A DNA stretch of 64,000 bases. Origin: a virus. Location: the IMG/VR virus record IMGVR_UViG_3300027790_000002. The stretch is one strand, 5' to 3'. A program made the translations under genes and the position numbers. The notes beneath the pieces are model-generated. The model was given only the letters and a program-made list of their open reading frames with translations. It was not told the origin of the DNA and did not search any database. Position 1 is the stretch's first letter, and each line of letters begins with the position of its first letter. This document shows, piece after piece, positions 1,500-59,019 of this stretch.

Positions 1500-2071
1500 T
1501 GAAAAAAGCGCGCGGCATCATCATGTCGCCGGCCATGGCCAAAGCGGTGTGGGACGGGCGAAAGACCCAGACCCGCCGTCTGGCTTCAAGTAAATTCATG
1601 GCCAGCGTGAAACCGGGCGACGCCCTTTATGTGCGCGAACGCTTCCGGCTCGAGGTCCAGTTTGACGACCTGCCGCCCAACTATCTGCTGTCAACCGGCT
1701 ATAAATCGACGCCGGTCTGGTACGGCGCCGATGGCGAGCCGCCCTCGCGCAGCCCGTGGGACCGCCCTTACGGCAAGCTGCGCCCATCCATTCACATGCC
1801 GCGCTGGGCAGGGCGCATGATGCTGCACGTCACAGAAGTCCGCACCGAAATGCTTCATGCCATCACCGAAGCCGACGCGAAAGCCGAAGGCGCGCAGCGC
1901 GTGCCGGAAATTGGAAACTCCTACCGCGCCGGGTTTCGGGACATCTGGGACGGGCTGCATGGGGCGAAGCCGGACGCCTGCTGGACGGCGAACCCCGACG
2001 TCATCGCCCTGACCTTCCGCGTCGAGAAAATCACCAAGCAAAGCCTTACAGGAGGCCACCGTGAAAACTGA
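1499..2071 (+). CDS. ASCH-domain protein
   Basis: N-terminal IIMSPAMAKAVWDGRKTQTRR matches ASCH-family core motif. Confidence 0.7.
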   Translation: MKKARGIIMSPAMAKAVWDGRKTQTRRLASSKFMASVKPGDALYVRERFRLEVQFDDLPPNYLLSTGYKSTPVWYGADGEPPSRSPWDRPYGKLRPSIHMPRWAGRMMLHVTEVRTEMLHAITEADAKAEGAQRVPEIGNSYRAGFRDIWDGLHGAKPDACWTANPDVIALTFRVEKITKQSLTGGHREN

Positions 2072-2453
2072 ACCGGACAGCCAACTGCTGCCGCTGGCGG
2101 CCCAGATTGTCGCCGCCTATGTGGCGGGGCCAAACAAACTGCCGGCGGAGAAAATCGGCGACACACTCGCCATGGTGCATGAGGCGTTGCAGGGACTGGC
2201 GCAAGGCGCGCCGGTCGTCAACCGCGAGCCTGCCGTTCCCATCGCCAAGTCCGTGACACCCAACGCCATCATTTGCCTTGAAGACGGCAAGAAACTTAAA
2301 ATGCTGAAACGCTATCTGCGCACGCATTTCGATTTGAGCCCGGAAGAATACCGCCGGAAATGGGGGCTGCCGGCGGATTATCCGATGACGGCGCCGAGTT
2401 ACGCCGAACACAGGTCCAAGTTGGCGAAGCAAACCGGCTTGGGCAAACGATAG
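2061..2453 (+). CDS. mucR: Ros/MucR-family transcriptional regulator homolog, degenerate zinc finger (CLEDG...THF)
   Basis: GTG start with CAGGAGG SD; C-terminal IICLEDGKKLKMLKRYLRTHFDLSPEEYRRKWGLPADYPMTAPSYAEHRSKLAKQTGLGKR aligns with Ros/MucR DNA-binding domain; DIVAAYV N-terminal motif. Confidence 0.75.
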   Translation: MKTEPDSQLLPLAAQIVAAYVAGPNKLPAEKIGDTLAMVHEALQGLAQGAPVVNREPAVPIAKSVTPNAIICLEDGKKLKMLKRYLRTHFDLSPEEYRRKWGLPADYPMTAPSYAEHRSKLAKQTGLGKR

Positions 2454-4066: not shown

Positions 4067-4624
4067 ATGAGCGACGATTTGGCGGAAACCCTCAAACCCT
4101 TACAGCAGCTGCCGGACTTGGTGGGCCGGTTGCGCGACGACGGGCTGCCGGACATCTGCAGCGAGGCGGCCAACGAAATTGAGGAATTGCAGGGCTGCTT
4201 CGATATCCGCTGGAAAGCCGATATGCGCGCCATCAAGATGTGGCAGGCGGCGCACCCCGGTAGCGAAAACATCTGGCCGGACCATGCGGAAATGGTCCTG
4301 TGGCTCATGGAACAACTGACAGGCAAAGGAGAAAGCATGGCCTTCAAACCTCTTTACGACCAAGTGCTGGTGAAACTGGAACCGAACAAAAGGGTGACCG
4401 ACGGTGGCATCATCATTCCCGAAGGGGCGCAGGAACAGCCGCAGATTGCGGAAGTGCTGGCCGTCGGGCCGGGCGCACTCAACAGCAAGGGCGTGCGCGC
4501 CCCCATGTCCGTGGCGGTCGGGGACTGGGTTCTTATCAACAAATGGGCCGGCAACGAACTGACCGTGGACGGCGTAAAGGCGCATATTCTGCGCGAGTAT
4601 GACATCATGGGCGTAATCGACTAG
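4067..4624 (+). CDS. groES: GroES (Cpn10) co-chaperonin homolog; 95-aa GroES domain 4337..4624 with in-frame 90-aa N-terminal extension
   Basis: MAFKPLYDQVLVKLEPNKRVTDGGIIIPEGAQEQPQIAEVLAVGPG...VGDWVLINKWAGNELTVDGVKAHILREYDIMGVID aligns along full GroES; strong SD AAAGGAGAAAGC before internal ATG 4337. Confidence 0.75.
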   Translation: MSDDLAETLKPLQQLPDLVGRLRDDGLPDICSEAANEIEELQGCFDIRWKADMRAIKMWQAAHPGSENIWPDHAEMVLWLMEQLTGKGESMAFKPLYDQVLVKLEPNKRVTDGGIIIPEGAQEQPQIAEVLAVGPGALNSKGVRAPMSVAVGDWVLINKWAGNELTVDGVKAHILREYDIMGVID

Positions 4625-5918: not shown

Positions 5919-6091
5919 CCCGCCAGCAGGACATTCCGAGCCTTTTGGCCTTTGCGGCGCGCATTGTGGAGCGCTACGGCGAACGCTACCTGCCGATTTT
6001 CGACCGTCTGGACGCCGAAAATGAAGCGCAGGAATCACGGGCCGCCCGGCTGGAAAAAGCGAAAAAAATAGCGGCGGCGTCGAAAAAATGA
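5915..6091 (+). CDS. hypothetical small protein (58 aa)
   Basis: ATGA overlap with previous stop; below ORF-track cutoff. Confidence 0.3.
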   Translation: MTRQQDIPSLLAFAARIVERYGERYLPIFDRLDAENEAQESRAARLEKAKKIAAASKK

Positions 6092-6171
6092 CTTGACGCT
6101 GGGGGTTATATGTCCCATATTAGGGACATGGAACGGCGCAGGGCCGAACCGGAATTGGAGACAGACCAATG
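6091..6171 (+). promoter_or_regulatory. repeat cassette copy 1: TTGACG -35, 17-bp spacer, palindrome ATGTCCCatattaGGGACAT, conserved leader, GGAG SD, ATG
   Basis: near-identical to the 4 other copies; ends exactly at start codon 6169. Confidence 0.6.
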
Positions 6172-6297
6172 CAAAGCGACCTCATCAAACCCAGCCTTAA
6201 AACCGACTCCTTTGATGAAATGCTGCACAAGTGCGCCGCGCTTGAATTTCTCATAAAGTCCGCCAGATATTTTGTCGCGCAAGGTCTTACAGTTTAG
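6169..6297 (+). CDS. cassette-driven ORF 1 (42 aa), hypothetical
   Basis: ATG is last 3 nt of cassette copy 1. Confidence 0.35.
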   Translation: MQSDLIKPSLKTDSFDEMLHKCAALEFLIKSARYFVAQGLTV

Positions 6298-6320
6298 GTC
6301 GATTTTTTCAAAAAAACGAC

Positions 6321-6399
6321 TTGACCTTTTTGCGCGATTGTCCCACATTAGTGACATGGAACGGCGCAGGGCCGAACCGGAATTGGAGACAGACCAATG
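6321..6399 (+). promoter_or_regulatory. repeat cassette copy 2 (palindrome half-site variant GTGACAT)
   Basis: TTGACC -35 at 6321; same leader and SD; ATG 6397. Confidence 0.6.
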
Positions 6400-6597
6400 T
6401 ACGATTATACCACCATTTACATTAAAGAAGCCGGACGCACCACCGAAGTCATGCGCTACACTAAAGGCGACATGGAGGAAGTCTTCAATGAAGACGAACG
6501 CGCCCGCCTCGCGAAAGGCAAGGTGATTTGGCGCGGCAATTGCAGCTATGTGAGCGGCGACGCGCTCGCTGAAATCGCTTTTGCAGACGCGAAATAA
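6397..6597 (+). CDS. cassette-driven ORF 2 (66 aa), hypothetical
   Basis: ORF track; ATG fused to cassette copy 2. Confidence 0.45.
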   Translation: MYDYTTIYIKEAGRTTEVMRYTKGDMEEVFNEDERARLAKGKVIWRGNCSYVSGDALAEIAFADAK

Positions 6598-6607
6598 GGG
6601 GGCGGAC

Positions 6608-6793
6608 ATGGCTGTTAAACTGACCAAGAAAGTGGAAAAGCTGCTGACCGAAATTGCTGTAAAGCATTTCAATGTTGAAACGCTGGAAACCCGACGCAGC
6701 GACTCGCTTGATTTTTACGACTGCGCCGTGTGGTCCATGCGCGAAGCGCTGGCCGAAGCTTACGAAGCTGGGAAAAAGGCGGCGCAGAAATGA
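6608..6793 (+). CDS. hypothetical small protein (61 aa)
   Basis: ATG 6608 behind AAGGGGGCGGAC; internal start of ORF 6581..6793. Confidence 0.4.
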   Translation: MAVKLTKKVEKLLTEIAVKHFNVETLETRRSDSLDFYDCAVWSMREALAEAYEAGKKAAQK

Positions 6794-6862
6794 CCGCTTA
6801 TCCCCTCAAACGTCTGCTGGACCTTATCAGCAAAGCCATAGCGTCAATGAAAGGGAATTGAA

Positions 6863-7726
6863 ATGAAACGGTTAGAAAATCTTGGGTTTGCAGAAATCCA
6901 AACCGGGGGCGGCTGCACCGCCTTGGCCAAGCCATATTGCGGCGGTCATCTTCTGGTGACGAATAATGACGCCATGGCGCCGGAAAAAACAGACAGGCTT
7001 TTTGCCCTGTGGCGCGAAGACGAAAACGGCGAAGTGATCGAAAAAGAAACCGACGGTTTTTATTCAAGCGACAGGCTGTTTGCGCGCATCGCTTTTTATG
7101 AGAAAGCCGAAAAACTGGCGCGGGAGTTCGCCAAGGTGGTTGAAACCGCCGCCGACCTTGGCAATCTGGACGGCGTCAGTTTTCAGCAGATTTTGGAGCG
7201 CAACCGCGCGGACGCGCCGGGCGTGTGTTCGCTGCATGACGTTTGCGACGCCAACATGCTAATGCACGAAGCATGGATGAATCTATTTGCGCCAAAAGAG
7301 CCCGACGTTAGCAAAAATGCCGATTCCGAATTGTGGGACATCGCGTGGAGCGTCGCCAAACAAACCGACTTTTTCACAAAGGAGGAACCTGTAACGGGCG
7401 CGGACAATTCGCTGCCGCCGCGCTGCACTTATCCCGCCTGCAAGTGCATTGTATCGACCAGCACCAGCCAGCCCGTGCCGGTTTGTCCGCTGGGGCTGCC
7501 GAAAGGCTTAGAGGACAAAGCGCAGCAAGAATTTGACGCGGCGTGGGACGCCTTGGAAGAGCAAGGAAAATGCGACTCGCGCGGCGGCATGGAGTATCTA
7601 AGGGTGCTTGAAGAATGGGCCGGTTATTGCCGCCCGATGACGGTGGCGCAATTCATTGAAGCCAGCGCCAATATTCTGCCAGACGAAACGGTCACCGCCG
7701 CCGCCAAGCGTCTCGGCATTCACTAA
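6863..7726 (+). CDS. hypothetical protein (287 aa), Cys-containing
   Basis: ORF track; ATGAAAGGGAA start-associated motif 16 nt upstream. Confidence 0.5.
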   Translation: MKRLENLGFAEIQTGGGCTALAKPYCGGHLLVTNNDAMAPEKTDRLFALWREDENGEVIEKETDGFYSSDRLFARIAFYEKAEKLAREFAKVVETAADLGNLDGVSFQQILERNRADAPGVCSLHDVCDANMLMHEAWMNLFAPKEPDVSKNADSELWDIAWSVAKQTDFFTKEEPVTGADNSLPPRCTYPACKCIVSTSTSQPVPVCPLGLPKGLEDKAQQEFDAAWDALEEQGKCDSRGGMEYLRVLEEWAGYCRPMTVAQFIEASANILPDETVTAAAKRLGIH

Positions 7727-7740
7727 GAGAAAGGCAAATC

Positions 7741-7986
7741 ATGACGCCCAAACAGTTCACCGATTTTGGCGTGGCGCTATATGGCGAAACCAGCTGGAAA
7801 CAGCAGCTGGCGCTGGACCTCGCCATCAACCGCCGCACGGTCGGGCGCTACGCCAACGGCCAGTGGCCCATTCCAGAAGGCGTCGCCGCCGACCTTATCA
7901 ACCTTGCCGGGAAGCGCGCCGAAGCGCTCACAAGGCTGCTGGGCCGCGCGCAAAATAAAGTGAAAAAATCGACCATGGCCGCTTGA
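7741..7986 (+). CDS. putative HTH DNA-binding protein (81 aa)
   Basis: QQLALDLAINRRTVGRYANGQ resembles Cro/CI-type helix-turn-helix; SD GAGAAAGG. Confidence 0.4.
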   Translation: MTPKQFTDFGVALYGETSWKQQLALDLAINRRTVGRYANGQWPIPEGVAADLINLAGKRAEALTRLLGRAQNKVKKSTMAA

Positions 7987-8061
7987 CATTCCGGCGGCTA
8001 TGTCCCACATTAGGGACATGGAACGGCGCAGGGCCGAACCGAAATTGGAGACAGACCAATG
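7983..8061 (+). promoter_or_regulatory. repeat cassette copy 3
   Basis: TTGACA -35 at 7983; perfect palindrome ATGTCCCacattaGGGACAT; ATG 8059. Confidence 0.6.
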
Positions 8062-8940: not shown

Positions 8941-9188
8941 ACGTGCAAATTCACCTTGGCGGGGAAAACGGCGCCACACATACAGTCACTTACGATGACG
9001 GTCGAAAGCTGCACCTTGTTCCCTGCAACAGCCATGAACAGGCCCGCACTTTCGTTAAGGGCATAGAAGCCGGATACGCCGCCGCCTGCCTTCGGATTGC
9101 GGACGGAAAGCCAGACGTTTTTGATGCGACCAACGCCCAACGGAACGAAAAGGAACTTGAAGATGGGAACGAAAAACAACCCCGGTAA
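8937..9188 (+). CDS. hypothetical protein (83 aa)
   Basis: ATGA overlap with previous gene. Confidence 0.4.
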   Translation: MNVQIHLGGENGATHTVTYDDGRKLHLVPCNSHEQARTFVKGIEAGYAAACLRIADGKPDVFDATNAQRNEKELEDGNEKQPR

Positions 9189-9699
9189 ATTCGACTGCTA
9201 TCACGCGGCGGAGCCGGACGAACCAATGTTTGTTCTGCTGGCGCGCGACCCGCAGGCGCCAAACCTTGTGCGCGAATGGGCGAACCTTCGCCGCCTCTTG
9301 GACCTCAAAAACGAAGACGCGGCGAAGGTGGAGGAAGCGACCATGTGCGCCGACGCCATGGAGGCGTGGTTCAGGGAACACAGGCCCGACAAACTGAAAG
9401 AATGGAAAAACGAAATGCTGGCCGGGTTTTCCGACCGCAAACCGACCAGCGAATGGAACGAATACACTCATGAACTGACCGATGACGAGGGGCGTATCAA
9501 CGAACAGGCGCTGGTGACCGCCGTGCAGGTTTATGTGGCGCAGCAATATATGTGCCGCGCCAGCATCGCCGCCATTGCGCGCGTGTTCAACATCACGCCG
9601 GCGCTCGCCATCGCCGCCGTCAGGGGCCATTACCTTGGCTTTGTCGGCGGCGATGAAAGCGACCCGGTGAATTGCATTGCAGAATATGACGGAGAATAG
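9163..9699 (+). CDS. hypothetical protein (~178 aa)
   Basis: ORF 9097..9699; internal ATG 9163 behind AAGGAACTTGAAG. Confidence 0.4.
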   Translation: MGTKNNPGKFDCYHAAEPDEPMFVLLARDPQAPNLVREWANLRRLLDLKNEDAAKVEEATMCADAMEAWFREHRPDKLKEWKNEMLAGFSDRKPTSEWNEYTHELTDDEGRINEQALVTAVQVYVAQQYMCRASIAAIARVFNITPALAIAAVRGHYLGFVGGDESDPVNCIAEYDGE

Positions 9700-10719: not shown

Positions 10720-10796
10720 CAGGGTGTGGCGCAGTCGGTCAGCGCGCTCGCCTCGGAAGCGAGAAGCCGCGGGTTCGAGTCCCGCCACCCTGACCA
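10720..10796 (+). tRNA. tRNA-Pro(CGG)
   Basis: acceptor CAGGGTG/CACCCTG, D GCGC/GCGC, anticodon stem CTCGC/GCGAG loop CTCGGAA, T GCGGG-TTCGAGT-CCCGC, A-CCA. Confidence 0.75.
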
Positions 10797-10833
10797 AATC
10801 CGAAAACAGACCACGACACGGCGCTAAATTTTA

Positions 10834-10911
10834 GCCGCCGTAGCTCAGTTGGTCAGAGCGCCGTCCTTGTAAGCCGGAAGTAGCGGGTTCGAATCCACGC
10901 CGGCGGCACCA
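10834..10911 (+). tRNA. tRNA-Thr(UGU), T stem with bulged A
   Basis: acceptor GCCGCCG/CGGCGGC, loop CTTGTAA, T loop TTCGAAT, A-CCA; one mismatch in anticodon stem. Confidence 0.6.
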
Positions 10912-10973
10912 AAATCCAGAAAGTCAGTACGATGAACAAGCGAAGGGAACACCGAGATATTAGCGCCTGACAA

Positions 10974-11049
10974 GGCGCGATGGTGTCATGGGTTAACATG
11001 GTTGACTGTCCATCAACAGCAACGGGTTCGAGTCCCGTTCGCGCCGCCA
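10974..11049 (+). tRNA. tRNA-Asp(GUC)
   Basis: acceptor GGCGCGA/TCGCGCC, anticodon stem GTTGA/TCAAC loop CTGTCCA, T ACGGG-TTCGAGT-CCCGT, G-CCA. Confidence 0.7.
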
Positions 11050-11064
11050 GTGCAGCAGGGCTTG

Positions 11065-11139
11065 CCCGGCGTAGCTCAGCGGTAGAGCGTCCGGCTGATA
11101 ACCGGAAGGGCGCGGGTTCAAATCCCGCCGCCGGCACCA
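11065..11139 (+). tRNA. tRNA-Ile(GAU)
   Basis: D GCTC-AGCGGTA-GAGC, anticodon stem TCCGG/CCGGA loop CTGATAA, T GCGGG-TTCAAAT-CCCGC, A-CCA; apparent C1-C72 mismatch. Confidence 0.65.
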
Positions 11140-11167
11140 GTTTTCGACAGCAACGCGCCTGAATTGT

Positions 11168-11242
11168 TGGCGCGTAGCTTAGTGGTAGAGCACTTGAATT
11201 TGACTCAAGGGGTCGGCGGTTCGAATCCTCCCGCGCCATCCA
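11168..11242 (+). tRNA. tRNA-Gln(UUG)
   Basis: U1-A72 first pair (GlnRS-type), anticodon stem CTTGA/TCAAG loop ATTTGAC, T loop TTCGAAT, T-CCA. Confidence 0.7.
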
Positions 11243-11308
11243 ACCCTTAAAGGTGAAAAAAATGAGACGACATCACGGGACTTTTCGAGAGCGCAGCGCG
11301 TAAACCGC

Positions 11309-11384
11309 GCAGCCTTCGTCTAGCGGTCTAGGATTCCGGCCTTTCAAGCCGGCGACGCCGGTTCAAATCCGGTAGGCTGCACCA
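11309..11384 (+). tRNA. tRNA-Glu(UUC)
   Basis: acceptor GCAGCCT/AGGCTGC, anticodon stem CCGGC/GCCGG loop CTTTCAA, T GCCGG-TTCAAAT-CCGGT, A-CCA. Confidence 0.75.
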
Positions 11385-11385
11385 T

Positions 11386-11462
11386 CCCGAAGTCGTCTAA
11401 CTGGTCAGGACGCTTGATTGTGGATCAGGAAATTACGGGTTCGAGTCCCTGCTTCGGGACCA
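11386..11462 (+). tRNA. tRNA-His(GUG), alphaproteobacterial type (A73, U at -1, no G-1)
   Basis: acceptor CCCGAAG/CTTCGGG, anticodon stem CTTGA/TCAGG loop TTGTGGA, T loop TTCGAGT, A-CCA. Confidence 0.65.
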
Positions 11463-11559
11463 AACAGAGAACGGTGTAAAAAATGTACGAAGTGTACGGA
11501 ACGTACAAACCGAAACGGAAACGGAACGCTTAGCGCAAGCCAGGCGGGCGTGCGCTTAT

Positions 11560-11637
11560 GGGCGCGCCGCCGTCTGGGAATGGCCACCGGCTTTTAACCG
11601 GTCACCTTGTCGGGTTCGAATCCCACCGCGCTCACCA
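11560..11637 (+). tRNA. tRNA-Lys(UUU)
   Basis: anticodon stem ACCGG/CCGGT loop CTTTTAA, T loop TTCGAAT with bulged C in 5' strand, 3' CGCGCTC-A-CCA. Confidence 0.6.
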
Positions 11638-11699
11638 CCTATTTGTTGGAGTCAACCAAATGGCTAAATTCAGGCGACGGCGACGCAACAGACTGAACT

Positions 11700-11775
11700 G
11701 TGCGCGTAGCTCAATGGACAGAGCCGCCGGCTTCTAACCGGCTCAATGCGGGTTCGACTCCTGCCGCGCACGCCA
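11700..11775 (+). tRNA. tRNA-Arg(UCU)
   Basis: acceptor GTGCGCG/CGCGCAC, D GCTC/GAGC, anticodon stem GCCGG/CCGGC loop CTTCTAA, T GCGGG-TTCGACT-CCTGC, G-CCA. Confidence 0.75.
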
Positions 11776-11778
11776 TGC

Positions 11779-11855
11779 AGCCCCGTGGCGCAATGGACTA
11801 GCGCAGCAGATTACGAATCTGAAGGTTCCGGGTTCGAGTCCCGGCGGGGCCGCCA
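11779..11855 (+). tRNA. tRNA-Arg(ACG)
   Basis: D GCGC-AATGGACTA-GCGC, loop TTACGAA, T CCGGG-TTCGAGT-CCCGG, 3' CGGGGCC-G-CCA; apparent A1-C72. Confidence 0.65.
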
Positions 11856-11862
11856 ATTTCAA

Positions 11863-11938
11863 GCGCGGCTACCTTAATGGACAGAGGGCCGGCTTCCGAA
11901 GCCGGAATGTCGGGGTTCGACTCCCCGGCCGCGCGCCA
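11863..11938 (+). tRNA. tRNA-Arg(CCG)
   Basis: acceptor GCGCGGC/GCCGCGC, anticodon stem CCGGC/GCCGG loop TTCCGAA, T CGGGG-TTCGACT-CCCCG, G-CCA. Confidence 0.75.
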
Positions 11939-11965
11939 TGTCATCATGGCATTTTCAGCGTCCTC

Positions 11966-12202
11966 TTATTTCGCGGCTTTCGGGCCGCAGGCTTTAGTGC
12001 GTTTCGCATCGTTCAGGGCCGCGTCAAGCGACAGCGCCGCGTTGCGAATGTGATCGTCGATCTCCGGCTCTGATAAATCGACGTTGCCGTTCAGGCCCCG
12101 AAGCTGTCGGGAATATTTTTCGATCCGGAGCAGCATTTTTTCAGCCGAAACATTCACTTGGCGGGTCCTTTCATTTAGCGTTCCGCCGGTCGATAGCGGC
12201 AA
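11966..12202 (-). CDS. hypothetical small protein (78 aa), last gene of minus-strand moron operon
   Basis: ORF track; ends ...KAAK* followed by conserved junction GAGGACGCTGAAAATG with no downstream ORF. Confidence 0.4.
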   Translation of the reverse strand: MPLSTGGTLNERTRQVNVSAEKMLLRIEKYSRQLRGLNGNVDLSEPEIDDHIRNAALSLDAALNDAKRTKACGPKAAK

Positions 12203-12669: not shown

Positions 12670-12920
12670 AATACGTCGTCTTCGAGCGGTTCATATTCGG
12701 GAGGATCTGCCAAGATCGCCGCTTCGATCTTCGTCCATTCGTCGTCGGTGAGGCTTTCGCCTTCGGGCAGTCCGTAAACCGTTTTTTCAAATTCGATCTC
12801 GACCGGATCGCCGGGCATCCAGCAACCGCCCGCGAAGTAGTCTCCGCCGCCGCCATTTAGCCGATAGCAGACCATGACTTCTGTCCCGTCGGCGCGCGTA
12901 AAGTCATGATTGAATGACAT
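12666..12920 (-). CDS. hypothetical small protein (84 aa)
   Basis: ATG 12920 preceded by conserved TAATAAGAGGACGCTGAAAAATG junction. Confidence 0.45.
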   Translation of the reverse strand: MSFNHDFTRADGTEVMVCYRLNGGGGDYFAGGCWMPGDPVEIEFEKTVYGLPEGESLTDDEWTKIEAAILADPPEYEPLEDDVF

Positions 12921-12937
12921 TTTTCAGCGTCCTCTTA

Positions 12938-13234
12938 TTACGCGGCCTTGTCGGCCTGTTTTGGTTTCGCATCTGGAAACCAGCTTTCGAGATCGTCGAG
13001 CGCCCATTTCAGGCCGGTGATCTTACCGCTCACGCTGGATCGGCGAGCCGCGTCAAAGCTGCACTCTGGAATTTGATTCAGGGCTTGCGTCTGATTGTCG
13101 ATGAGGTTGCGCAGCCTGTCGCCAAGACGACCGGCGCGCTCGGCAATCTCGGCTTTGAACTGCGCCGTCACTGCCGCCTTCGCTTGGCGCTCGATGTCGC
13201 GCTCGCGGGGCGTATAGAGAGATTCATCAAGCAT
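12938..13234 (-). CDS. hypothetical small protein (98 aa)
   Basis: ATG 13234 preceded by TAAGGACGCTGAAAATG junction. Confidence 0.45.
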   Translation of the reverse strand: MLDESLYTPRERDIERQAKAAVTAQFKAEIAERAGRLGDRLRNLIDNQTQALNQIPECSFDAARRSSVSGKITGLKWALDDLESWFPDAKPKQADKAA

Positions 13235-13304
13235 TTTCAGCGTCCTTAGATTTGCAGCCGCGCGACGCGGCCGTCGGGGTGACGTTCATTTTATTGGTCC
13301 TTTC

Positions 13305-14389: not shown

Positions 14390-14476
14390 GGGCGAGTATG
14401 CAAGCGGTCGAAGCGAGCGGGCTGTAACCCCGCACATTGGAAACGTCGGGGGTTCGAATCCACCCCTCGCCCACCA
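14390..14476 (+). tRNA. tRNA-Tyr(GUA), class II (long variable arm)
   Basis: acceptor GGGCGAG/CTCGCCC, anticodon stem GCGGG/CCCGC loop CTGTAAC, T loop TTCGAAT (3' strand CC-A-CCC bulge), A-CCA; 87 nt. Confidence 0.65.
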
Positions 14477-14662
14477 TCTGCAAATTCAGGATATTTTATT
14501 CAAATCTTATTCACGGTTGACAGTGTCAACGGCGCGCGCCTAGATGGTCCTTGATTTGCACCGCCGCAGGAAGTCCGCCTGCGGAATGACACGGCCAACG
14601 GGAGTAAGGACACATGAAAAACGGTCTGAACATCGCGATATTATGGCGACTCTCGAATTTTG

Positions 14663-14739
14663 GCGCGTGTAGCTCAGTCGGTAGAGCCGCCTCCTCATAA
14701 GAGGTAGGGTCGCAAGTTCAAGTCTTGCCACGCGCACCA
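14663..14739 (+). tRNA. tRNA-Met(CAU), elongator or Ile2-type (no GGG/CCC in anticodon stem)
   Basis: acceptor GCGCGTG/CACGCGC, D GCTC/GAGC, loop CTCATAA, T GCAAG-TTCAAGT-CTTGC, A-CCA. Confidence 0.7.
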
Positions 14740-14741
14740 AT

Positions 14742-14816
14742 AGCGGTGTCCGTCTAATGGTAAGACAGCAGTCTCCAAAACTGAAAATGTGGGTTCGATT
14801 CCCGCCGCCGCTGCCA
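14742..14816 (+). tRNA. tRNA-Trp(CCA)
   Basis: loop CTCCAAA, T GTGGG-TTCGATT-CCCGC, 3' CGCCGCT-G-CCA. Confidence 0.65.
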
Positions 14817-14819
14817 AAT

Positions 14820-14900
14820 CCCCCCGTGGGCAAATTTTGGTAAAGTCACCGGTCTTAAAAACCGGCAGCGTTGCGGGTTCGAGTCCCGCCGGGGGGACCA
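14820..14900 (+). tRNA. tRNA-Leu(UAA)-like, atypical: class-II-type D arm but short (7 nt) variable loop
   Basis: acceptor CCCCCCG/CGGGGGG, D GGC-AAATTTTGGTAAA-GTC, anticodon stem CCGGT/ACCGG loop CTTAAAA, T GCGGG-TTCGAGT-CCCGC, A73-CCA; 81 nt. Confidence 0.55.
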
Positions 14901-14907
14901 ACCACAA

Positions 14908-14984
14908 GGGCTCGTAGCTCAGCCTGGGAGAGCAACGGTTTTGCACGCCGCAGGTCGTCAGTTCAAATCTGACCGGGTCCACCA
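14908..14984 (+). tRNA. tRNA-Ala(UGC)
   Basis: G3-U70 wobble identity pair present; GCTCAGCCTGGGAGAGC D arm; loop TTTGCAC; T GTCAG-TTCAAAT-CTGAC; A-CCA. Confidence 0.75.
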
Positions 14985-14989
14985 GCAAC

Positions 14990-15069
14990 GCCTCGCTGGG
15001 CAAATTTTGGTAAAGTCGTCTGATTTAGGATCAGAAGTTTTCCCGGTTCGAGTCCGGGGCGGGGCACCA
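14990..15069 (+). tRNA. tRNA-Leu(UAG)-like, atypical (same D arm as 14820 tRNA, 6-nt variable loop)
   Basis: D GGC-AAATTTTGGTAAA-GTC identical 22-nt to other Leu-like; anticodon stem TCTGA/TCAGA loop TTTAGGA; T CCCGG-TTCGAGT-CCGGG; A-CCA. Confidence 0.55.
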
Positions 15070-15145
15070 CAAAACAGCGCGGCAAGATCCCGCGCAATGA
15101 AAGGTTAGAACGATGCCAGACGATTCAAGTTCGTCCAGCGAGAAA

Positions 15146-15231
15146 GGAAGGGTGGCAGAGCGGTAATGCAGCGGCTTGCTAAGCCGTAGGGCCTCATGGT
15201 TCCGCCGGTTCGACTCCGGCCCCTTCCGCCA
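15146..15231 (+). tRNA. tRNA-Ser(GCU), class II
   Basis: acceptor GGAAGGG/CCCTTCC, loop TTGCTAA, long variable arm, T GCCGG-TTCGACT-CCGGC, G-CCA. Confidence 0.7.
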
Positions 15232-15235
15232 ATTT

Positions 15236-15321
15236 GGAGGGCGCCGCTCGATGGTAGGCAACCGGTCCCGAAAACCGGGGTGGCGTTCGCGTCAGTGGTT
15301 CGACTCCGCCGCCCTCCGCCA
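15236..15321 (+). tRNA. tRNA-Ser(CGA), class II, apparent C33
   Basis: acceptor GGAGGGC/GCCCTCC, anticodon stem CCGGT/ACCGG loop CCCGAAA (cf E. coli serU CTCGAAA), T loop TTCGACT, G-CCA. Confidence 0.6.
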
Positions 15322-15396
15322 AATTCAGAACCTTTTGAGGTCGGCTGGCCAACGGGCTGCAGACTGAAACGCCCGGGCCTTCCTCAAAGGGTTTGC

Positions 15397-15471
15397 CGCG
15401 CGGTAGCTCAGCGGTAGAGCGCCGGTTTGAAGGGCCGGGCGTCGTGGGTTCAATCCCCACCCGCGCAACCA
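15397..15471 (+). tRNA. tRNA-Phe(GAA)
   Basis: D GCTC-AGCGGTA-GAGC, loop TTGAAGG, T GTGGG-TTCAATC-CCCAC, 3' CCGCGCA-A-CCA; apparent C1-A72. Confidence 0.65.
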
Positions 15472-15514
15472 TGTTAATTTTCGCCCCCTCATTTGAGGGC
15501 GAAAAAATGAACAC

Positions 15515-15590
15515 AGGGGCGTAGCTCAGTGCGAAGAGCGGCTGTTTTACACACAGCGGGTCGCGGGTTCGATTCCTGCCGCCCCCACCA
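15515..15590 (+). tRNA. tRNA-Val(UAC)
   Basis: anticodon stem GCTGT/ACAGC loop TTTACAC, T GCGGG-TTCGATT-CCTGC, 3' CGCCCCC-A-CCA. Confidence 0.7.
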
Positions 15591-15595
15591 GTTTC

Positions 15596-15668
15596 GCGGG
15601 CTTCCTCCAGGTGAGGTAAGGGCCTTCCAAGCCCCCACGGTCGGGTTCGAGTCCCACAGTCCGCTCCA
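15596..15668 (+). tRNA. tRNA-Gly(UCC)
   Basis: U73 discriminator and TCCA end typical of Gly; loop CTTCCAA; T loop TTCGAGT with bulged C. Confidence 0.65.
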
Positions 15669-15673
15669 GTTTT

Positions 15674-15750
15674 TGGGATAGGGCCCCGCTGGTAGGGGCG
15701 CATGGCTGTTAACCATGTCGCTGCAGGTTCGAGTCCTGCTATCCCAGCCA
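15674..15750 (+). tRNA. tRNA-Asn(GUU)
   Basis: acceptor TGGGATA/TATCCCA, anticodon stem CATGG/CCATG loop CTGTTAA, T GCAGG-TTCGAGT-CCTGC, G-CCA. Confidence 0.7.
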
Positions 15751-15751
15751 G

Positions 15752-15825
15752 GCGCGGGTGTCCGAGTGGCAAGGAGCCGGATTGCAACCCCGGTTAGAGC
15801 GGTTCGATTCCGCTCCCGCGCTCCA
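15752..15825 (+). tRNA. tRNA-Cys(GCA)
   Basis: acceptor GCGCGGG/CCCGCGC, loop TTGCAAC, T AGCGG-TTCGATT-CCGCT, U73-CCA as in Cys. Confidence 0.7.
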
Positions 15826-25411: not shown

Positions 25412-25790
25412 ACTGAAAACGGGGCGCGCCGAAGCGCCGCCCCGTCCCGGTCTTCTGTTGCCAGGCGACCAAACCCCGTGAAATTACGCCGCGAGGCGCT
25501 GTTCCACAAAATTGCCGTTATCGTTGGCAGTTCTTAAAGTCGGCTTATACGCGGCCAACCGGCGTTCTCAGCTTTCGTTTCACCGTCTGTCGAACCCAAA
25601 TCGGCCCCATCAAGAACGCATCCCAAGGCGGGTTTGGCGCAGGGCATTTTCAACCCATCCACCCGCGGGGCAGGACCGACAAGCGGCGCCGCCACCCCAG
25701 ATGCGCTCTTGGTGGAGCCGGCGGGAATTGAACCCGCGTCCAGTCCAGCTACGCCAAAGCGTCAGCGAGCGCGGCGGAAGGGTAGCATCG
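25412..25790 (-). ncRNA. ssrA: tmRNA (ssrA), two-piece circularly permuted alphaproteobacterial type; tag ANDNGNFVEQRLAA
   Basis: minus strand GGACGCGGGTTCAATTCCCGCCGGCTCCACCA (25738-25707) nearly identical to the E. coli tmRNA 3' T-arm/acceptor, but no 5' acceptor partner upstream; downstream at 25528-25484 reads GCC AAC GAT AAC GGC AAT TTT GTG GAA CAG CGC CTC GCG GCG TAA; ~380 nt precursor size fits two-piece ssrA. Confidence 0.7.
25419..25459. terminator. GC-rich hairpin, candidate bidirectional intrinsic terminator
   Basis: ACGGGGCG...CGCCCCGT stem followed by TCTTCTGTT on plus and GTTTT on minus; sits between Tat-protein gene and tmRNA 3' end. Confidence 0.5.
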
Positions 25791-25831
25791 AATTTTTCAC
25801 GAAAAAAGGTCTGTTTTCGTGAAATTCGGAC

Positions 25832-25910
25832 TTGACCTTTCCGGCTAAATGTCCCACATTAGGGACATGGAACGGCGCAGGGCCGAACCGAAATTGGAGA
25901 CAGACCAATG
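25832..25910 (+). promoter_or_regulatory. repeat cassette copy 4
   Basis: TTGACC -35, perfect palindrome, ATG 25908; divergent from tmRNA gene. Confidence 0.6.
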
Positions 25911-26138
25911 ACAGACATCGCCAAAATCAGCGCTATTGGCCGCAGCACGAAAAAAGAAAAAGACGGCACCTACACCTACCGCGTTTATGCGGTGATAGAG
26001 GGCCAGCCGACAGAGACGCTGGCCATGTGCAAAGATCTGCCGACCCGCGCCATGGCGACTGACCGCGCCAAAAAATGGACCCTTTACTATCGCCGCCAGC
26101 GCACGGCGACGCTGAACAAAACCCGGCGCGGGGCATAG
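25908..26138 (+). CDS. cassette-driven ORF 4 (76 aa), basic protein
   Basis: ORF track. Confidence 0.45.
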   Translation: MTDIAKISAIGRSTKKEKDGTYTYRVYAVIEGQPTETLAMCKDLPTRAMATDRAKKWTLYYRRQRTATLNKTRRGA

Positions 26139-26168
26139 GGCCGCGCGAAACTTGGCAAGGAGGCCACA

Positions 26169-26366
26169 ATGACCACGGAAACCAAAACTGCACCGACCTC
26201 GCATCGCGGCCCCTGCGCAGTCCCCTGCGAATGCGGCGGGACAATGCGCGGGGAAGGCGAAATCGCCACGGGCGAACCTTTGCCGCATTATACACCGGAG
26301 CCGGGCGAAGTGCTGCGGTTTCATTGGTTGGAATGCGACAAATGCGGCGGCGTTCAGGTTTCGTAA
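26169..26366 (+). CDS. small zinc-ribbon-like protein (65 aa)
   Basis: SD AAGGAGG; CxC...CxxC. Confidence 0.4.
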   Translation: MTTETKTAPTSHRGPCAVPCECGGTMRGEGEIATGEPLPHYTPEPGEVLRFHWLECDKCGGVQVS

Positions 26367-26377
26367 GGAGGCGGGCA

Positions 26378-26548
26378 TGCGCAGAATTGACATATTCAAA
26401 CGGCTGGCGGGCGGTGCCGATGGCGAACGCCTCGCCACGGTGGAAGCGCGCACCCAGCGCGAGGCCAAGATCGCCGTTGCGCAAAAACTGCAAAACGAAG
26501 GCAAGGGCTATGGGCCCAGTGATCTGAACGCGCGCTGGGCTTGTTAAT
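26378..26548 (+). CDS. hypothetical small protein (56 aa)
   Basis: SD TAAGGAGG; below ORF-track cutoff. Confidence 0.3.
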
Positions 26549-27414: not shown

Positions 27415-27491
27415 TGGGTGCGGGAGGGGGATTTGAACCCCCGACCTCTTGGTTATGAGCCAAGCGCGCTACCGGACTGCGCCATCCACGC
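27415..27491 (-). tRNA. tRNA-Met(CAU)-like
   Basis: minus strand: D GCGC-AGTCCGGTA-GCGC, anticodon stem CTTGG/CCAAG loop CTCATAA, T GGGGG-TTCAAAT-CCCCC, 3' TCCCGCA-C-CCA; acceptor needs one bulged U. Confidence 0.55.
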
Positions 27492-27634
27492 ATCAACGGC
27501 GCCGGGCATGGCAGACCGGGTGCGCAATGTCAAGTTTGCGAAAAGCGCCGAACGCGCTTAGCGGTCGATTGTCCGGCGTGACATTGTAGCGTAGCGGTCG
27601 GCGGGCGTTGCTTATCATCGCCGACCCGCTGCAC

Positions 27635-53693: not shown

Positions 53694-54200
53694 TTAAGCC
53701 GCTCCATCATTCGGGAACAGGTCAGAAAACGGATTGACGTTGTCGCCGCCGTTGCCGGCGGAAATCCGGCTGCGCGAACTGGGCGTGCCGCCAAACTCAG
53801 TGGCCAGCGATTTGTAAAGTTCCATGGCCTTGTTCGCTGTTCCCACCAGCGGGCTTTGGATTTTGTTGCCGTTGGTGGTGCCGACCATAAGGCCGTAATG
53901 GTTCTGGTCTTTTTCGCGATACTTCAAAAGCGCCGCCTCGGCATCCTGCCAGCGACCGTATGCCGTGCAAAGCGCGCTGAACGCCCCGCCGTCGATTTCG
54001 GTCAAAATCTGCAGCTTTGAAAGCTTTGGCGCGAGTAAATTCCAATGCGCCAAGGCGCGCGGGTGGTTCGCGACCGATTCCGCAGCTTCCGGCAGAACAA
54101 GGTCGGGCTTAGGCTCGTTTTCGTTTGTCGGCCTTTTGCCTGGATTGCCGCGCACTAGCTTTAGATGGCTGGGCAGCGGCTTTCGTCCGGGTGTCGCCAT
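53694..54200 (-). CDS. terS: terminase small subunit (P27 family)
   Basis: N-terminal GRKPLPSHLKLVRGNPGKRP matches P27-family signature. Confidence 0.7.
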   Translation of the reverse strand: MATPGRKPLPSHLKLVRGNPGKRPTNENEPKPDLVLPEAAESVANHPRALAHWNLLAPKLSKLQILTEIDGGAFSALCTAYGRWQDAEAALLKYREKDQNHYGLMVGTTNGNKIQSPLVGTANKAMELYKSLATEFGGTPSSRSRISAGNGGDNVNPFSDLFPNDGAA

Positions 54201-55527
54201 TTTCTGCTAACTCCTGACTGTCTGCGGATCCTGCGCCCTCTTCAATCTTGGCAGTTCCTTCCGCTTTCTTGAAATCAATTTCATTGTAGCGCTTGCCATC
54301 TGATTCGCGGATAGCGTCTTTGCCGGTATGGTCTTGCCAGCGGCGAATAGCGACATCGACGAATTTTGGCGAAAGTTCGCACACAAACGCCCGGCGGCCT
54401 GTCCGTTCACACGCAATAATCGTCGAACCGCTGCCGCCGAAAGGGTCGCATACCGTCGCGGCGAAGTCGTTTACGTTAATGATTTTCTCGAGTAGCGCGA
54501 CCGGTTTTTCTGTTGGGTGGTTTTTGTTGCCGCTGCGCTGTTCGGTAATCACATTGCCTTGCGCGCTTTTCGGGTCAAACGGCTGCTTTACCTTTGTGGC
54601 CGCCATCACCAATTCGTGCTGCATGCGCCAGCCGCGGCCCATGCCCGGCGTGCCCTTATTCCAGACCACCATATTGCGGACGCCGTAGCCGCAACTTTCG
54701 ACGCTTTCAAAAAGGTGATTCCACATGCGCCAGTCGGTGAATATGTAAACGCCGCCGGCTTTGAACCGCTGCAGAATGCGCTCAATCAGTGTTTGGTAGC
54801 CCTTGCTGGAAAGCGTGTCGTTCGCGATTGTCTCATCGCCGCGCGTGCCAATTGAGCCGCTGCCCTTTCCAGCTTCCTGAAAGCCGCCGGAACAGTAGGG
54901 CGGGTCCGTAAGCATGATGTGCGGCCCTTCGCCGGCCAGCAGTTTTTTAACCACCGCCTCGTCGGTGCTGTCGCCGCAGGCGAGGCGGTGGTCGCCTAAA
55001 ATCCAAATGTCGCCTGGCTGGCTGGTCGGGTAAACTGGCGGCGCCGGCACTTCGTCCGGGTCCGTCTTTCCTTTTTCATCTTCGCCGGCAAGGTAGCCTT
55101 TCAGTTCGTTATCGCCGAAGCCGATAAGCGGCAACTCGAAATCCAGCGCCTGCAATTCCTGCAGTTCGAGCGCCAGCATTTCTTCATTCCAGCCGGCGTT
55201 TAGCGCCAACTGGTTGTCGGCAATGATAAACGCCCGGCACTGGGCGTCGGTCCAACCTTCCGCAATGGTTACGGGTACTTTGTCGATTCCAAGGTAACGC
55301 AGCGCCATAACCCGGCCATGCCCGGCGATGATGGTATTATCCGGCTTAATCAAAACGGTGCCGACAAAGCCCCATTCTTTGAACCCGGCCGCCAGTTGGG
55401 CGATTTGCGCGTCGTCATGGGTGCGCGCATTTCGCGCGTATGGCAGCAGTTCGTTGATAGCGCGCCATTCCTTGGCGTCGGTCAAAAACTGAATGGTGGC
55501 CGGTGTGCGTAGCTGTTTCTTAGTCAT
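54109..55527 (-). CDS. ParB-like nuclease domain fused to DNA methyltransferase (DPPY, N6A/N4C class)
   Basis: ParB box TIIAGHGRVMALRYLG; MTase motifs IMLTDPPY and DPFGGSGST; start set to MTKKQL to reduce overlap with terS. Confidence 0.8.
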   Translation of the reverse strand: MTKKQLRTPATIQFLTDAKEWRAINELLPYARNARTHDDAQIAQLAAGFKEWGFVGTVLIKPDNTIIAGHGRVMALRYLGIDKVPVTIAEGWTDAQCRAFIIADNQLALNAGWNEEMLALELQELQALDFELPLIGFGDNELKGYLAGEDEKGKTDPDEVPAPPVYPTSQPGDIWILGDHRLACGDSTDEAVVKKLLAGEGPHIMLTDPPYCSGGFQEAGKGSGSIGTRGDETIANDTLSSKGYQTLIERILQRFKAGGVYIFTDWRMWNHLFESVESCGYGVRNMVVWNKGTPGMGRGWRMQHELVMAATKVKQPFDPKSAQGNVITEQRSGNKNHPTEKPVALLEKIINVNDFAATVCDPFGGSGSTIIACERTGRRAFVCELSPKFVDVAIRRWQDHTGKDAIRESDGKRYNEIDFKKAEGTAKIEEGAGSADSQELAENGDTRTKAAAQPSKASARQSRQKADKRKRA

Positions 55528-58389: not shown

Positions 58390-58702
58390 TTACAGGTGGG
58401 TGTCCAGCCCCGTAACTTCGGTAAAGATGCGCTGCAGGTCTTCGGCGTAGGCGCCAGCGGTTTCGTTCAGTTTGTGCATGCCAAAATTGGCGCCGCGTCC
58501 CAGTTTCCAGAACTCCACCGTGTAAGTGTCGTCACCGCGCAGCGCAATAACGCAGTGGGTGGCCTTCGCCTTGTTGCGGCGCACCTGAAAACTCAGGCCG
58601 TCGCCGCGATTAACGAAACTGTGCGAACCGGTCATGGCGGTGAATTTGTTGCCGCCAAGCTGCTGCAGTATGGTGCGGGCGATTTGTGTGTCGTTGCTCA
58701 TT
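58390..58702 (-). CDS. hypothetical protein (104 aa)
   Basis: ATG 58702 behind GAGGGGGGGG SD; the longer ORF 58390..59058 runs antisense through the repeat cassette. Confidence 0.4.
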
Positions 58703-58714
58703 TTCGCCCCCCCC

Positions 58715-58942
58715 TCAATATGCGTGAAATTCGTTGAAATAGACGCCAATCGGGCTGCCGCTCGAAGGGCGTTCACTGCGGATAGCGTCCACATGCACAT
58801 GATAGCGCTCGCCATCTTCGTCCACAAATTCAACCAGCCCGTTTTTGTCCACGTTCGTGACAGTTCCCTCAACCGTAGGGAACATGGCGCCGTAGTTGGC
58901 ATAGAGTTTGAAGCCGCAAAGTTCTTTAGGGTTGGCAAGCAT
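58715..58942 (-). CDS. cassette-driven ORF 5 (75 aa)
   Basis: ATG fused to minus-strand cassette copy 5. Confidence 0.45.
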   Translation of the reverse strand: MLANPKELCGFKLYANYGAMFPTVEGTVTNVDKNGLVEFVDEDGERYHVHVDAIRSERPSSGSPIGVYFNEFHAY

Positions 58943-59019
58943 TGGTCTGTCTCCAATTCCGGTTCGGCCCTGCGCCGTTCCATGTCCCTAATGTGGGACA
59001 TTTGCCGGGAATTGTCAAG
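58940..59019 (-). promoter_or_regulatory. repeat cassette copy 5 (minus strand)
   Basis: reverse complement gives TTGACA-N17-palindrome-leader-GGAG-ATG identical to plus-strand copies. Confidence 0.6.

Follow-up and report, generated by a model that had tools for sequence, protein, structure and literature searches.

A repeated 80-bp unit with the layout of a promoter, operator and leader precedes five unrelated small genes in a siphovirus-type phage genome

Introduction

The closest described counterparts of the element reported here, an 80-bp cassette that occurs five times in a 64,000-nt stretch of viral DNA (IMG/VR record IMGVR_UViG_3300027790_000002, hereafter the window), are the control regions of Aca proteins and the promoter early stem-loops (PeSLs) of T4-like phages. 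The window is part of a complete 73.7-kb phage genome, and window positions are used throughout. Aca2 of Pectobacterium phage ZF40 binds an inverted repeat (IR1, TTCG-N6-CGAA) that lies over a strong sigma-70 promoter, and a second inverted repeat (IR) is found in the 5′ untranslated region (UTR) (PMC6765145). The protein also binds two hairpins of the 5′ UTR, blocking the ribosome-binding site (RBS); for Aca1 of Pseudomonas phage JBD30, a hairpin of roughly 20 nt directly follows the transcription start site, with about 20 nt left between its end and the start codon; it is made up of a lower stem, at most two unpaired bases, then an upper stem, and the position of the start codon is conserved (PMC13551039). 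Up to three pairs of DNA and RNA motifs occur before adjacent operons, a single one of which carries aca (PMC13551039).

PeSLs combine an upstream stop codon in an A/T-rich stretch, −35 and −10 boxes, a stem-loop, a Shine-Dalgarno sequence (SD) and a start codon, the stem-loop mostly standing between the boxes or overlapping the −10 (PMC2839356). Found on either side of ORFans, they bring about insertions, deletions and replacements (PMC2839356, PMC4122927). A further system, the start-associated sequence (SAS) of Cluster K mycobacteriophages, is a 13-bp motif with no promoter attached, and its extended form (ESAS) consists of two imperfect inverted repeats of 17 bp whose spacer varies, at about a dozen or more sites per genome (PMC3203893). 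Here we describe the anatomy, conservation, distribution and genomic setting of the five cassettes, and compare them with these systems.

Results

Five cassettes, numbered c1 to c5, lie in the window, four on the + strand and one on the − strand (Table 1), and no further copy was found in the 9.9 kb of the phage genome outside it. Each 80-bp unit consists of CTTGAC, a 12-nt spacer, a 20-bp palindrome (ATGTCCCACATTAGGGACAT) and a 39-nt leader (GGAACGGCGCAGGGCCGAACCG(G/A)AATTGGAGACAGACCA) that runs up to the ATG of the gene behind it, with an SD at a proper distance before the ATG in every copy. Searches with the 22-nt leader core returned exactly five sites in the window and none in 100 shuffles, and the palindrome was found at the same five sites with one, two, zero, zero and zero mismatches in c1 to c5 (zero expected; zero in 100 shuffles), confirming all five copies claimed in the original prediction. 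In the phage genome, the perfect palindrome occurs in cassettes only. As had also been claimed, the proteins fused to the cassettes, of 42, 66, 98, 76 and 75 amino acids (aa), are unrelated to each other (blastp E>3), and the leader has a single polymorphic position, which is G in c1, c2 and c5 and A in c3 and c4. The boundaries proposed earlier were right within one base, the starts of c1 to c4 having been placed one base off the C of CTTGAC; the proposed 17-bp spacer is valid when counted from TTGACN to a −10-like CA(C/T)ATT inside the palindrome, whereas the gap between CTTGAC and palindrome is 12 nt; and c2, to which a single half-site mutation (GTGACAT) had been ascribed, carries two palindrome changes, TTGTCCC and GTGACAT.

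When the five cassettes are aligned in register, mean pairwise identity is about 32% in the 40 nt upstream, 100% across CTTGAC, 37.5% in the 12-nt spacer, which is about random in sequence and fixed in length, 94% in the palindrome, 98.5% in the 39-nt leader and 29.5% in the 20 nt after the ATG. This pattern, with a −35 hexamer invariant in five of five cassettes, a spacer of fixed length and free sequence, and A-rich DNA upstream, reads as that of a promoter, since an invariant hexamer at a fixed distance over a random spacer implies selection on the −35, for which RNA structure or recent duplication alone would be insufficient. The 40 nt upstream of the cassettes are 47–68% A+T, against 40% for the genome, and hold tracts of six or seven A residues at the positions of UP elements. 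CTTGAC-N17 is reportedly the Sinorhizobium-type promoter consensus of MacLellan et al. (2006), and CTTGAC-N17-CTATAT marks the alphaproteobacterial class of sigma-70-type promoters. The −10-like hexamers keep A2 and T6 of TATAAT, and read CATATT in c1 (four of six positions), where a C-to-T change in the palindrome loop creates this sequence, and CACATT in the other four (three of six); because only c1 (TTGACG-17-CATATT) passes a strict E. coli-type sigma-70 scan, we regard the −10 as probably weak. We consider it very probable that the cassettes function as promoters, with transcription predicted to start around the palindrome's final bases, in c3 near A8018, which would give a 5′ UTR of about 41 nt.

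The palindrome, ATGTCCC-N6-GGGACAT, has a 7-6-7 structure and spans about −18 to +2, so that the predicted −10 and start lie inside it, where a repressor that keeps RNA polymerase out would classically bind. As a stem it would have 7 bp, of which four are G-C pairs; no U-tract follows it, and it was not flagged by a terminator scan. The two changes in c2 fall at non-partner positions and would weaken a hairpin without compensation, which fits a protein site of lower affinity, and thus graded affinity among the copies, rather than a selected hairpin. Taken together with its position, this makes it reasonably probable that the palindrome is a repressor operator. Relaxed searches of the genome yielded 35 loose matches, where 24 were expected, and no further site among them was convincing.

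Several known regulatory sites were compared with the cassette sequence by inspection and rejected. The alphaproteobacterial LexA site (GAAC-N7-GAAC) differs in spacing, which is N11 in the cassette; the CtrA site (TTAA-N7-TTAA) and the GcrA/CcrM site (GANTC) are absent; an EcfG-type −35/−10 pair would call for CGTT, which the cassette lacks; a TGT-N12-ACA motif like that of P2 Ogr-type activator sites is present in the wrong position relative to any start; and an N4-type hairpin promoter would need a virion RNA polymerase, for which the phage showed no gene.

The bare pattern ATGTCCC-N6-GGGACAT has 111 matches in IMG/VR, several of them in coding sequence, a number estimated to be at or below chance under an assumed collection size. 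Three of the contigs (L047:1906-1995, L052:5638-5720 and L106:5990-6070) carry three tandem operators of this type directly upstream of a gene for a 111-aa helix-turn-helix (HTH) protein, and one operator of this set, ATGTCCCAAATTAGCGACAT, matches the window palindrome at 18 of 20 positions. In a high-GC, unrelated viral contig (L057:7040-7200, 7936-8096 and 10683-10843, and L086:1144-1304; IMGVR_UViG_3300031999_000048), four copies of a three-hairpin unit end in ATGTCCCC-N4-GGGGACAT, followed directly by a GGAGG RBS and a gene start; this unit is analogous to the present cassette, being likewise repeated and close to gene starts and sharing the palindrome core. Neither the L047/L052/L106 contigs nor L057/L086 matched a known phage, and the 111-aa HTH protein has no homologue among the proteins of the phage described here; the idea of a widespread 'TGTCCC-binding' repressor family was dropped.

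A candidate for the protein that binds the palindrome is encoded by the last gene of the operon behind c2, an 81-aa HTH protein that was one of the two regulators suggested in the original prediction and sits where an autorepressor would sit. An exhaustive HMMER search places it in a family of 272 cluster representatives of about 70–80 aa, with the consensus ...LAxxLGVxxRTVxRWAxGxxPIPxG..., whose members match the Pfam families YdaS_toxin (17 of 37), Aca2_YdiL (PF08965; 10 of 37) and HTH_3 (8 of 37). The best PDB matches of the family profile are four Aca2 entries (E=4.6e-6 to 1.1e-5). The AlphaFold model, with a predicted local distance difference test score (pLDDT) of 97.8, has four helices, one of them a long helix at the end, and its best Foldseek match in the PDB is Aca2 of phage ZF40, with a query-normalised TM-score (TMq) of 0.73 and a root-mean-square deviation of 2.0–2.1 Å over 73 of 81 residues, whereas only about 55 residues align with ordinary XRE domains. 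L129, a more distant member of the family, is preceded by CTTGAC and a different IR with a 12-bp stem, which suggests that promoter-overlapping IRs travel with this protein family. That the 81-aa protein is the repressor acting at the palindrome is a tentative proposal, to which its position and its family both point. The second suggested regulator, a MucR homologue, gained no support as the binding protein.

RNA folding of the c3 leader gives a first hairpin directly after the inferred start (8020-8040: GG-AA-CGGC-GCAGG-GCCG-AA-CC), consisting of a 2-bp lower stem, a 2×2 internal loop and a 4-bp upper stem and ending 18 nt before the ATG. A second, weak hairpin (8044-8060: AUUGG-AGACAGA-CCAAU) covers the GG of GGAG, the SD at 8047-8050, as well as the AU that begins the ATG at 8059. 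The full 62-nt unit from palindrome to ATG forms three hairpins and folds better than shuffled sequences (z = −3.75), most of the signal coming from the palindrome. Rfam returned no family match for the cassette, either at the gathering threshold or at E<=10.

The cassettes stand at module seams, that is, at insertion-deletion junctions with two sets of relatives. L007, whose large terminase subunit (TerL) is 58% identical to that of the phage, shares the MT-A70, DUF3102, N6_N4 methylase, TerS, TerL and structural genes in the same order; in L007, the interval from MT-A70 to DUF3102 holds unrelated genes and lacks the cassette, and homology over MT-A70 stops about 20 nt before the −35 of c5, which borders a variable island between two conserved genes. 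L127/L128 carries the closest homologue of the 81-aa HTH gene (61% identical), followed by AAAAATGACTTGACGCTGGG, which is identical in 20 of 20 positions to the left edge of c1 (6084-6103), and then directly by a homologue (69.5% identical in aa) of the window gene at 9163-9699, so that the intervening module, including the palindrome and leader of c3, is missing (Table 1). The first 130 nt of the short contig L127 (L127:1-130) appear, when read by eye, to be the 3′ end of a bacterial EAL-domain gene, and this relative may be a prophage, or a remnant within the chromosome of a bacterium. Because two relatives lack both the cassette and the small genes at these junctions, the unit is portable, which upholds the earlier claim of a portable cassette as opposed to a loose promoter consensus.

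Cassette sequences were sought with the 22-nt leader, a pattern of the palindrome followed by GGAAC, a 19-mer from the left edge of c1 and the whole 80-mer, in IMG/VR, 185,579 GTDB species-representative genomes, JGI metagenomes, INPHARED phages and PLSDB plasmids. The leader, the palindrome-leader junction and the whole 80-mer were absent from all five collections, with only five chance matches in unrelated coding sequences; in the 185,579 species-representative genomes the 22-nt leader was absent apart from three chance coding matches. The unit is therefore not a host repeat, and the possibility raised earlier, that it is common in the host chromosome, found no support in any collection. The phage itself is recovered as a 73.7-kb circle in several assemblies (ENA, JGI and Logan), whose contigs are 100% identical to the window; among the seven contigs carrying it, all of them 100% identical, there is neither population variation nor a recombinant.

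At c1, c3 and c5 there is no spare intergenic DNA before the cassette: the TGA (6089-6091) of an upstream 58-aa gene abuts the CTTGAC of c1, while the stop codons of the HTH gene (7984-7986) at c3 and of the MT-A70 gene at c5 are the TGA inside cTTGAc itself. Four cassettes (c1, c2, c3 and c5) are embedded in long series of co-directional genes that leave almost no space between one another, and no terminator-like site was predicted on the + strand within 6400-7990, across the c2 operon. The two direct repeats c1 and c2, 228 bp apart, stand on either side of a single 42-aa ORFan, which has the lowest GC (0.47) and third-position GC (GC3; 0.56). A terminator-like hairpin, CAAGTGCGCCGCGCTTG, with a T-rich tail lies at 6228-6244 (+) inside this open reading frame (ORF), 60 nt past its ATG. 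Given this hairpin and the low GC and GC3, the product of c1 may be a short RNA with the common leader rather than a protein. Three small ORFs stand behind c4 (76, 65 and 56 aa; 25908-26547) and two behind c5 (75 aa, 58715-58942; 103 aa, 58390-58701). Three of the first cargo ORFs have a GC below that of the genome. The 287-aa protein encoded between c2 and c3 has no homologue among 5.8 billion proteins, and the cargo proteins are ORFans with no match in Pfam, PHROG or PDB, general libraries in which no known acr gene was found.

The −35 of c4 lies 20 nt from the 5′ end of an opposite-strand phage gene for transfer-messenger RNA (tmRNA); a divergent tmRNA promoter was looked for on the strand opposite to c4, where no acceptable −35 turned up. 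A long A/T-rich inverted repeat (about 25789-25830) occupies the gap between the tmRNA gene and c4.

Table 1. Positions of the cassettes, their parts and associated features (window coordinates unless a contig is named)
Feature	Position	Strand	Details
c1	6092-6171	+	spacer 6098-6109; palindrome ATGTCCCATATTAGGGACAT 6110-6129; leader 6130-6168; ATG 6169
c2	6320-6399	+	palindrome TTGTCCCACATTAGTGACAT 6338-6357, degenerate (two non-compensatory changes); leader 6358-6396; ATG 6397
c3	7982-8061	+	palindrome 8000-8019; −10-like CACATT 8006-8011; leader 8020-8058; ATG 8059; 98-aa ORF
c4	25831-25910	+	palindrome 25849-25868; leader 25869-25907; ATG 25908
c5	58940-59019	− (inverted)	palindrome 59001-58982; leader 58981-58943; ATG 58942-58940
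CTTGAC	6092-6097, 6320-6325, 7982-7987, 25831-25836; 59019-59014	+ (four); − (last)	
Leader core, 22 nt	6130, 6358, 8020, 25869; 58981-58960	+ (four); − (last)	
Cassette ATG	6169, 6397, 8059, 25908; 58942	+ (four); − (last)	
Predicted transcription starts	A6128, A6356, A8018, A25867; T58983	+ (four); − (last)	within a few bases
c1 cargo	6169-6297	+	42-aa ORF of low GC
c2 operon (putatively autoregulated)	6397-7986	+	66 aa; DUF6900, 61 aa; 287 aa (ORFan); 81-aa HTH
Candidate repressor	7741-7986	+	81-aa four-helix HTH; last gene of the c2-driven operon; Aca2/YdaS/Cro-like
Module missing from L127/L128	7994-9190	+	c3 palindrome and leader; ORFs of 98, 173 and 83 aa
Regulator and methyltransferase loci	L010:413-2071 and window 2061-2453; L012:3850-6353; window 54109-55527, 59015-59635		

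Discussion

The arrangement is alike to the Aca systems in several respects: a predicted sigma-70-type promoter under an inverted repeat, a structured RNA predicted directly after the start, with the start codon at a fixed distance, and an operon in which small uncharacterised genes come first and a small HTH gene last. Aca2 is the closest solved relative of the 81-aa HTH protein by sequence profile as well as by fold, and its operator shares with the palindrome the N6 spacing and the position over the promoter, although the half-sites differ (ATGTCCC/GGGACAT here, TTCG/CGAA in Aca2). By analogy, c1, c2 and c3 would reproduce the picture of Aca motif pairs before neighbouring operons, and c4 and c5 would be two further, distant members. 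A further source on these systems is Birkholz et al. (Nature, 2024), as cited in PMC13551039. The present locus differs in its five copies, of which two lie 18 and 51 kb off and one is inverted, in the near-identity of the whole 5′ UTR among copies, in its alphaproteobacterial host, and in an operon that holds no known acr gene.

On balance, we favour the explanation that these are five promoter-operator-leader cassettes read by host RNA polymerase and controlled by an Aca2-like repressor of the phage, which also serve as recombination seams. Each cassette would present the host enzyme with a CTTGAC-N17 promoter of the sigma-70 type, preceded by an A-tract and having a weak −10, and the palindrome over the −10 and the start would be the operator for a dimeric phage repressor. 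The invariant 5′ UTR of ~41 nt would carry one hairpin directly after the start and a second, weak one over the SD and AUG. The repressor would most likely be the 81-aa HTH protein made from the c2 operon, shutting off its own operon only after c1, c3, c4 and c5, since the c2 operator has two weakening mutations. By analogy with Aca2 and Aca1, the invariant leader might be bound as RNA too, with translation blocked; such RNA-level control is rather doubtful. Because 62 bp are identical or nearly so at five places, the cassettes could also act as homology patches where modules of small genes are gained, lost or swapped. The earlier proposal that one dimeric repressor co-regulates five dispersed loci came through the available computational tests in its core, the regulation itself being a prediction.

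A set of observations weighs against this account and tempers it. In four of the five cassettes the −10 hexamer agrees with TATAAT at half of its positions and fails the strict scan. The leader alone does not fold significantly better than shuffled sequences (z = −1.8), and since it is near-identical across the five copies, its hairpins offer no covariation signal to assess. The 59-bp near-identity from palindrome to ATG could reflect gene conversion and not selection on every base; dense constraint (operator, RNA element and RBS) and gene conversion are non-exclusive, and the data fit either. The 81-aa protein itself has no Pfam match above threshold, and its Foldseek E-values are only about 0.05 because it is so small; at 81 aa, compared with 115–125 aa (115–124 aa for the aligned Aca2 chains), it lacks the C-terminal dimerisation domain of Aca2, and its presumed site differs from that of Aca2. 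We call it 'Aca2-like' and do not file it as Aca2, on account of these last two points. Another cryptic DNA-binding protein, of the phage or of the host, may act at the palindrome. Finally, no link of the cargo genes to anti-defence was found; an anti-defence function of the cargo is unlikely, and so is the fullest form of the proposal, in which a minimal 81-aa Aca2-like HTH protein would exert dual control, through DNA and leader RNA, over five operons with anti-defence or host-takeover cargo, the 62 bp serving as a recombination linker.

The alternative that survives best, with a modest chance of being right, is a PeSL-type cassette that has no dedicated repressor and would be a constitutive early promoter with a stem-loop acting as an attenuator or as recombination homology, mainly ferrying ORFan modules, its core kept uniform by gene conversion. 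Its layout corresponds to that of PeSLs point for point (PMC2839356, PMC4122927). Like the composite intergenic unit of T4-like myoviruses, roughly 100 bp long, which it matches element by element, it is present in multiple near-identical copies per genome, next to ORFans within variable regions and where related phages differ by indels; the position of the cassettes at junctions with both sets of relatives and the direct repeats c1 and c2 around one ORFan are what such a unit would leave. Conversion homogenises a shared core and not its flanks, so a diverged spacer next to an identical core is expected if conversion tracts need flanking homology. Against this stand the hairpin, which lacks a U-tract and escaped the terminator scan, the Aca2-like HTH gene that abuts a cassette, and the non-compensatory changes of c2, which fit a protein site better than a structural hairpin. 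The phage also differs from the PeSL-bearing ones in being of siphovirus type, with 60% GC, an integrase-like gene and a 2,056-aa tape measure protein, in having only five copies, in a stem-loop devoid of terminator features, and in a long, invariant leader between −10 and SD; and while recombination between copies has been seen for PeSLs, here the assemblies are all identical and show no recombinants. The two explanations are largely compatible and differ only on whether a repressor exists.

It is improbable that a different regulator acts at the palindrome, be it a host factor or another phage protein (MucR/Ros-, GcrA- or GapR-like, or unrecognised), so that the operons would be tied to host physiology. 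In its favour, the phage encodes MucR-, GcrA- and GapR-like proteins, and only position and family connect the 81-aa HTH protein with the palindrome. AT-rich DNA is the preferred target of MucR and GapR, and GcrA works at methylated GANTC sites, whereas the palindrome is not AT-rich and the cassette contains no GANTC; nor does the 22-nt leader occur, beyond chance, in the species-representative genomes searched.

Slightly less probable still is an RNA-level intercistronic element, transcribed from upstream promoters, whose hairpins would form a processing or stabilising site or a translational operator, CTTGAC being no promoter element. The co-directional gene runs around c1, c2, c3 and c5, the folding of the 62-nt unit beyond its shuffles, and the four hairpin series of L057/L086 that end just before gene starts all speak for it; yet it leaves unexplained an invariant CTTGAC exactly 12 nt from the palindrome, over a random spacer and behind A-tracts, the folding signal is mostly the palindrome itself, and Rfam has no match. 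A generic host repeat of the repetitive extragenic palindromic (REP) or miniature inverted-repeat transposable element (MITE) kind, or an assembly artefact, can be set aside as having a negligible chance: one short-read assembly (Logan SRR5579847) does break contigs inside the cassettes, but independent ENA and JGI assemblies give the same circle, searches of genomes, plasmids, known phages and viral contigs did not recover the cassette, and every copy is fused to an ATG with a properly spaced SD.

Two mycobacteriophage systems had been invoked in the original prediction. As a start-associated sequence, the cassette fits in outline only: in both cases a conserved sequence, presumed to be regulatory, stands directly before the starts of many unrelated genes, sometimes after inverted repeats, but sequence, length and host differ, and the unit described here spans 80 bp, with a −35 and a −10-like element among its parts, whereas SAS is 13 bp and has no promoter (PMC3203893). 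The term 'stoperator-like', in turn, draws the wrong analogy, one repressor with many dispersed phage sites being the shared feature, whereas the site here is symmetric and lies over the −10 and +1 of its own promoter. Stoperators act inside transcription units, where they block elongation, and those of Cluster A are said (Brown et al., 1997; Pope et al., 2011) to be asymmetric 13-bp sites oriented with transcription, in 20–30 or more copies.

If the favoured explanation holds, a single tiny repressor would, in this phage, act at five loci through one operator and one leader that recur there without change, which would make for a compact test case. Aca-type control, with its operator and structured 5′ UTR, would reach a new and shorter family of proteins as well as the phages of alphaproteobacteria, about ten small ORFans would become candidates for anti-defence or host-takeover functions, and a second independent case would be added, outside T4-like phages, of identical regulatory cassettes at the seams of gene-module exchange. 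Together with its repressor, the 80-bp unit might find use in alphaproteobacteria as an expression cassette that can be repressed. General concepts would be unchanged, as each ingredient has a published precedent in Aca control regions or PeSLs.

Further features of the phage genome

The phage has a 60% GC, siphovirus-type genome encoding a terminase, portal, protease, capsid, the 2,056-aa tape measure protein and an integrase-like protein. No close known phage was found, nor any close TerL relative in IMG/VR, and its TerL is nearest to those of Pseudomonas siphoviruses. Two TerL homologues of 914 aa (P0006 and P0008, 54% identical) contain an inserted PF05204 homing-endonuclease domain, which suggests a terminase intein.

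GcrA-like (65 aa), GapR-like (86 aa) and MucR/Ros-like (130 aa) proteins are encoded together with four DNA methyltransferases (C5, Dam-like D12, N6_N4 and MT-A70), a set that looks like a toolkit directed at alphaproteobacterial cell-cycle and nucleoid regulators. The GcrA-, GapR- and MucR-like genes and the type of the tmRNA point to an alphaproteobacterium as the host. The tmRNA gene (25443-25811, − strand) is permuted and of the alphaproteobacterial type (Rfam RF01849, 78 bits; RF04321, 95.5 bits), and ARAGORN gives its tag as ANDNGNFVEQRLAA.

The phage carries 25 tRNA genes, in two clusters and two singletons (807-883, 10720-11938, 14390-15825 and 27415-27492), which is unusually many for a 74-kb genome of siphovirus type. 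In the early rightward operon, the gene at 4067-4624 encodes a protein of 185 aa that contains a Cpn10 (GroES) domain. Another repeat associated with starts, TAAGAGGACGCTGAAAATG (11949-11971, 12918-12940 and 13231-13253), comprising a stop codon, an SD and a start, precedes three small leftward genes on the − strand, each copy following a different GC-rich hairpin.

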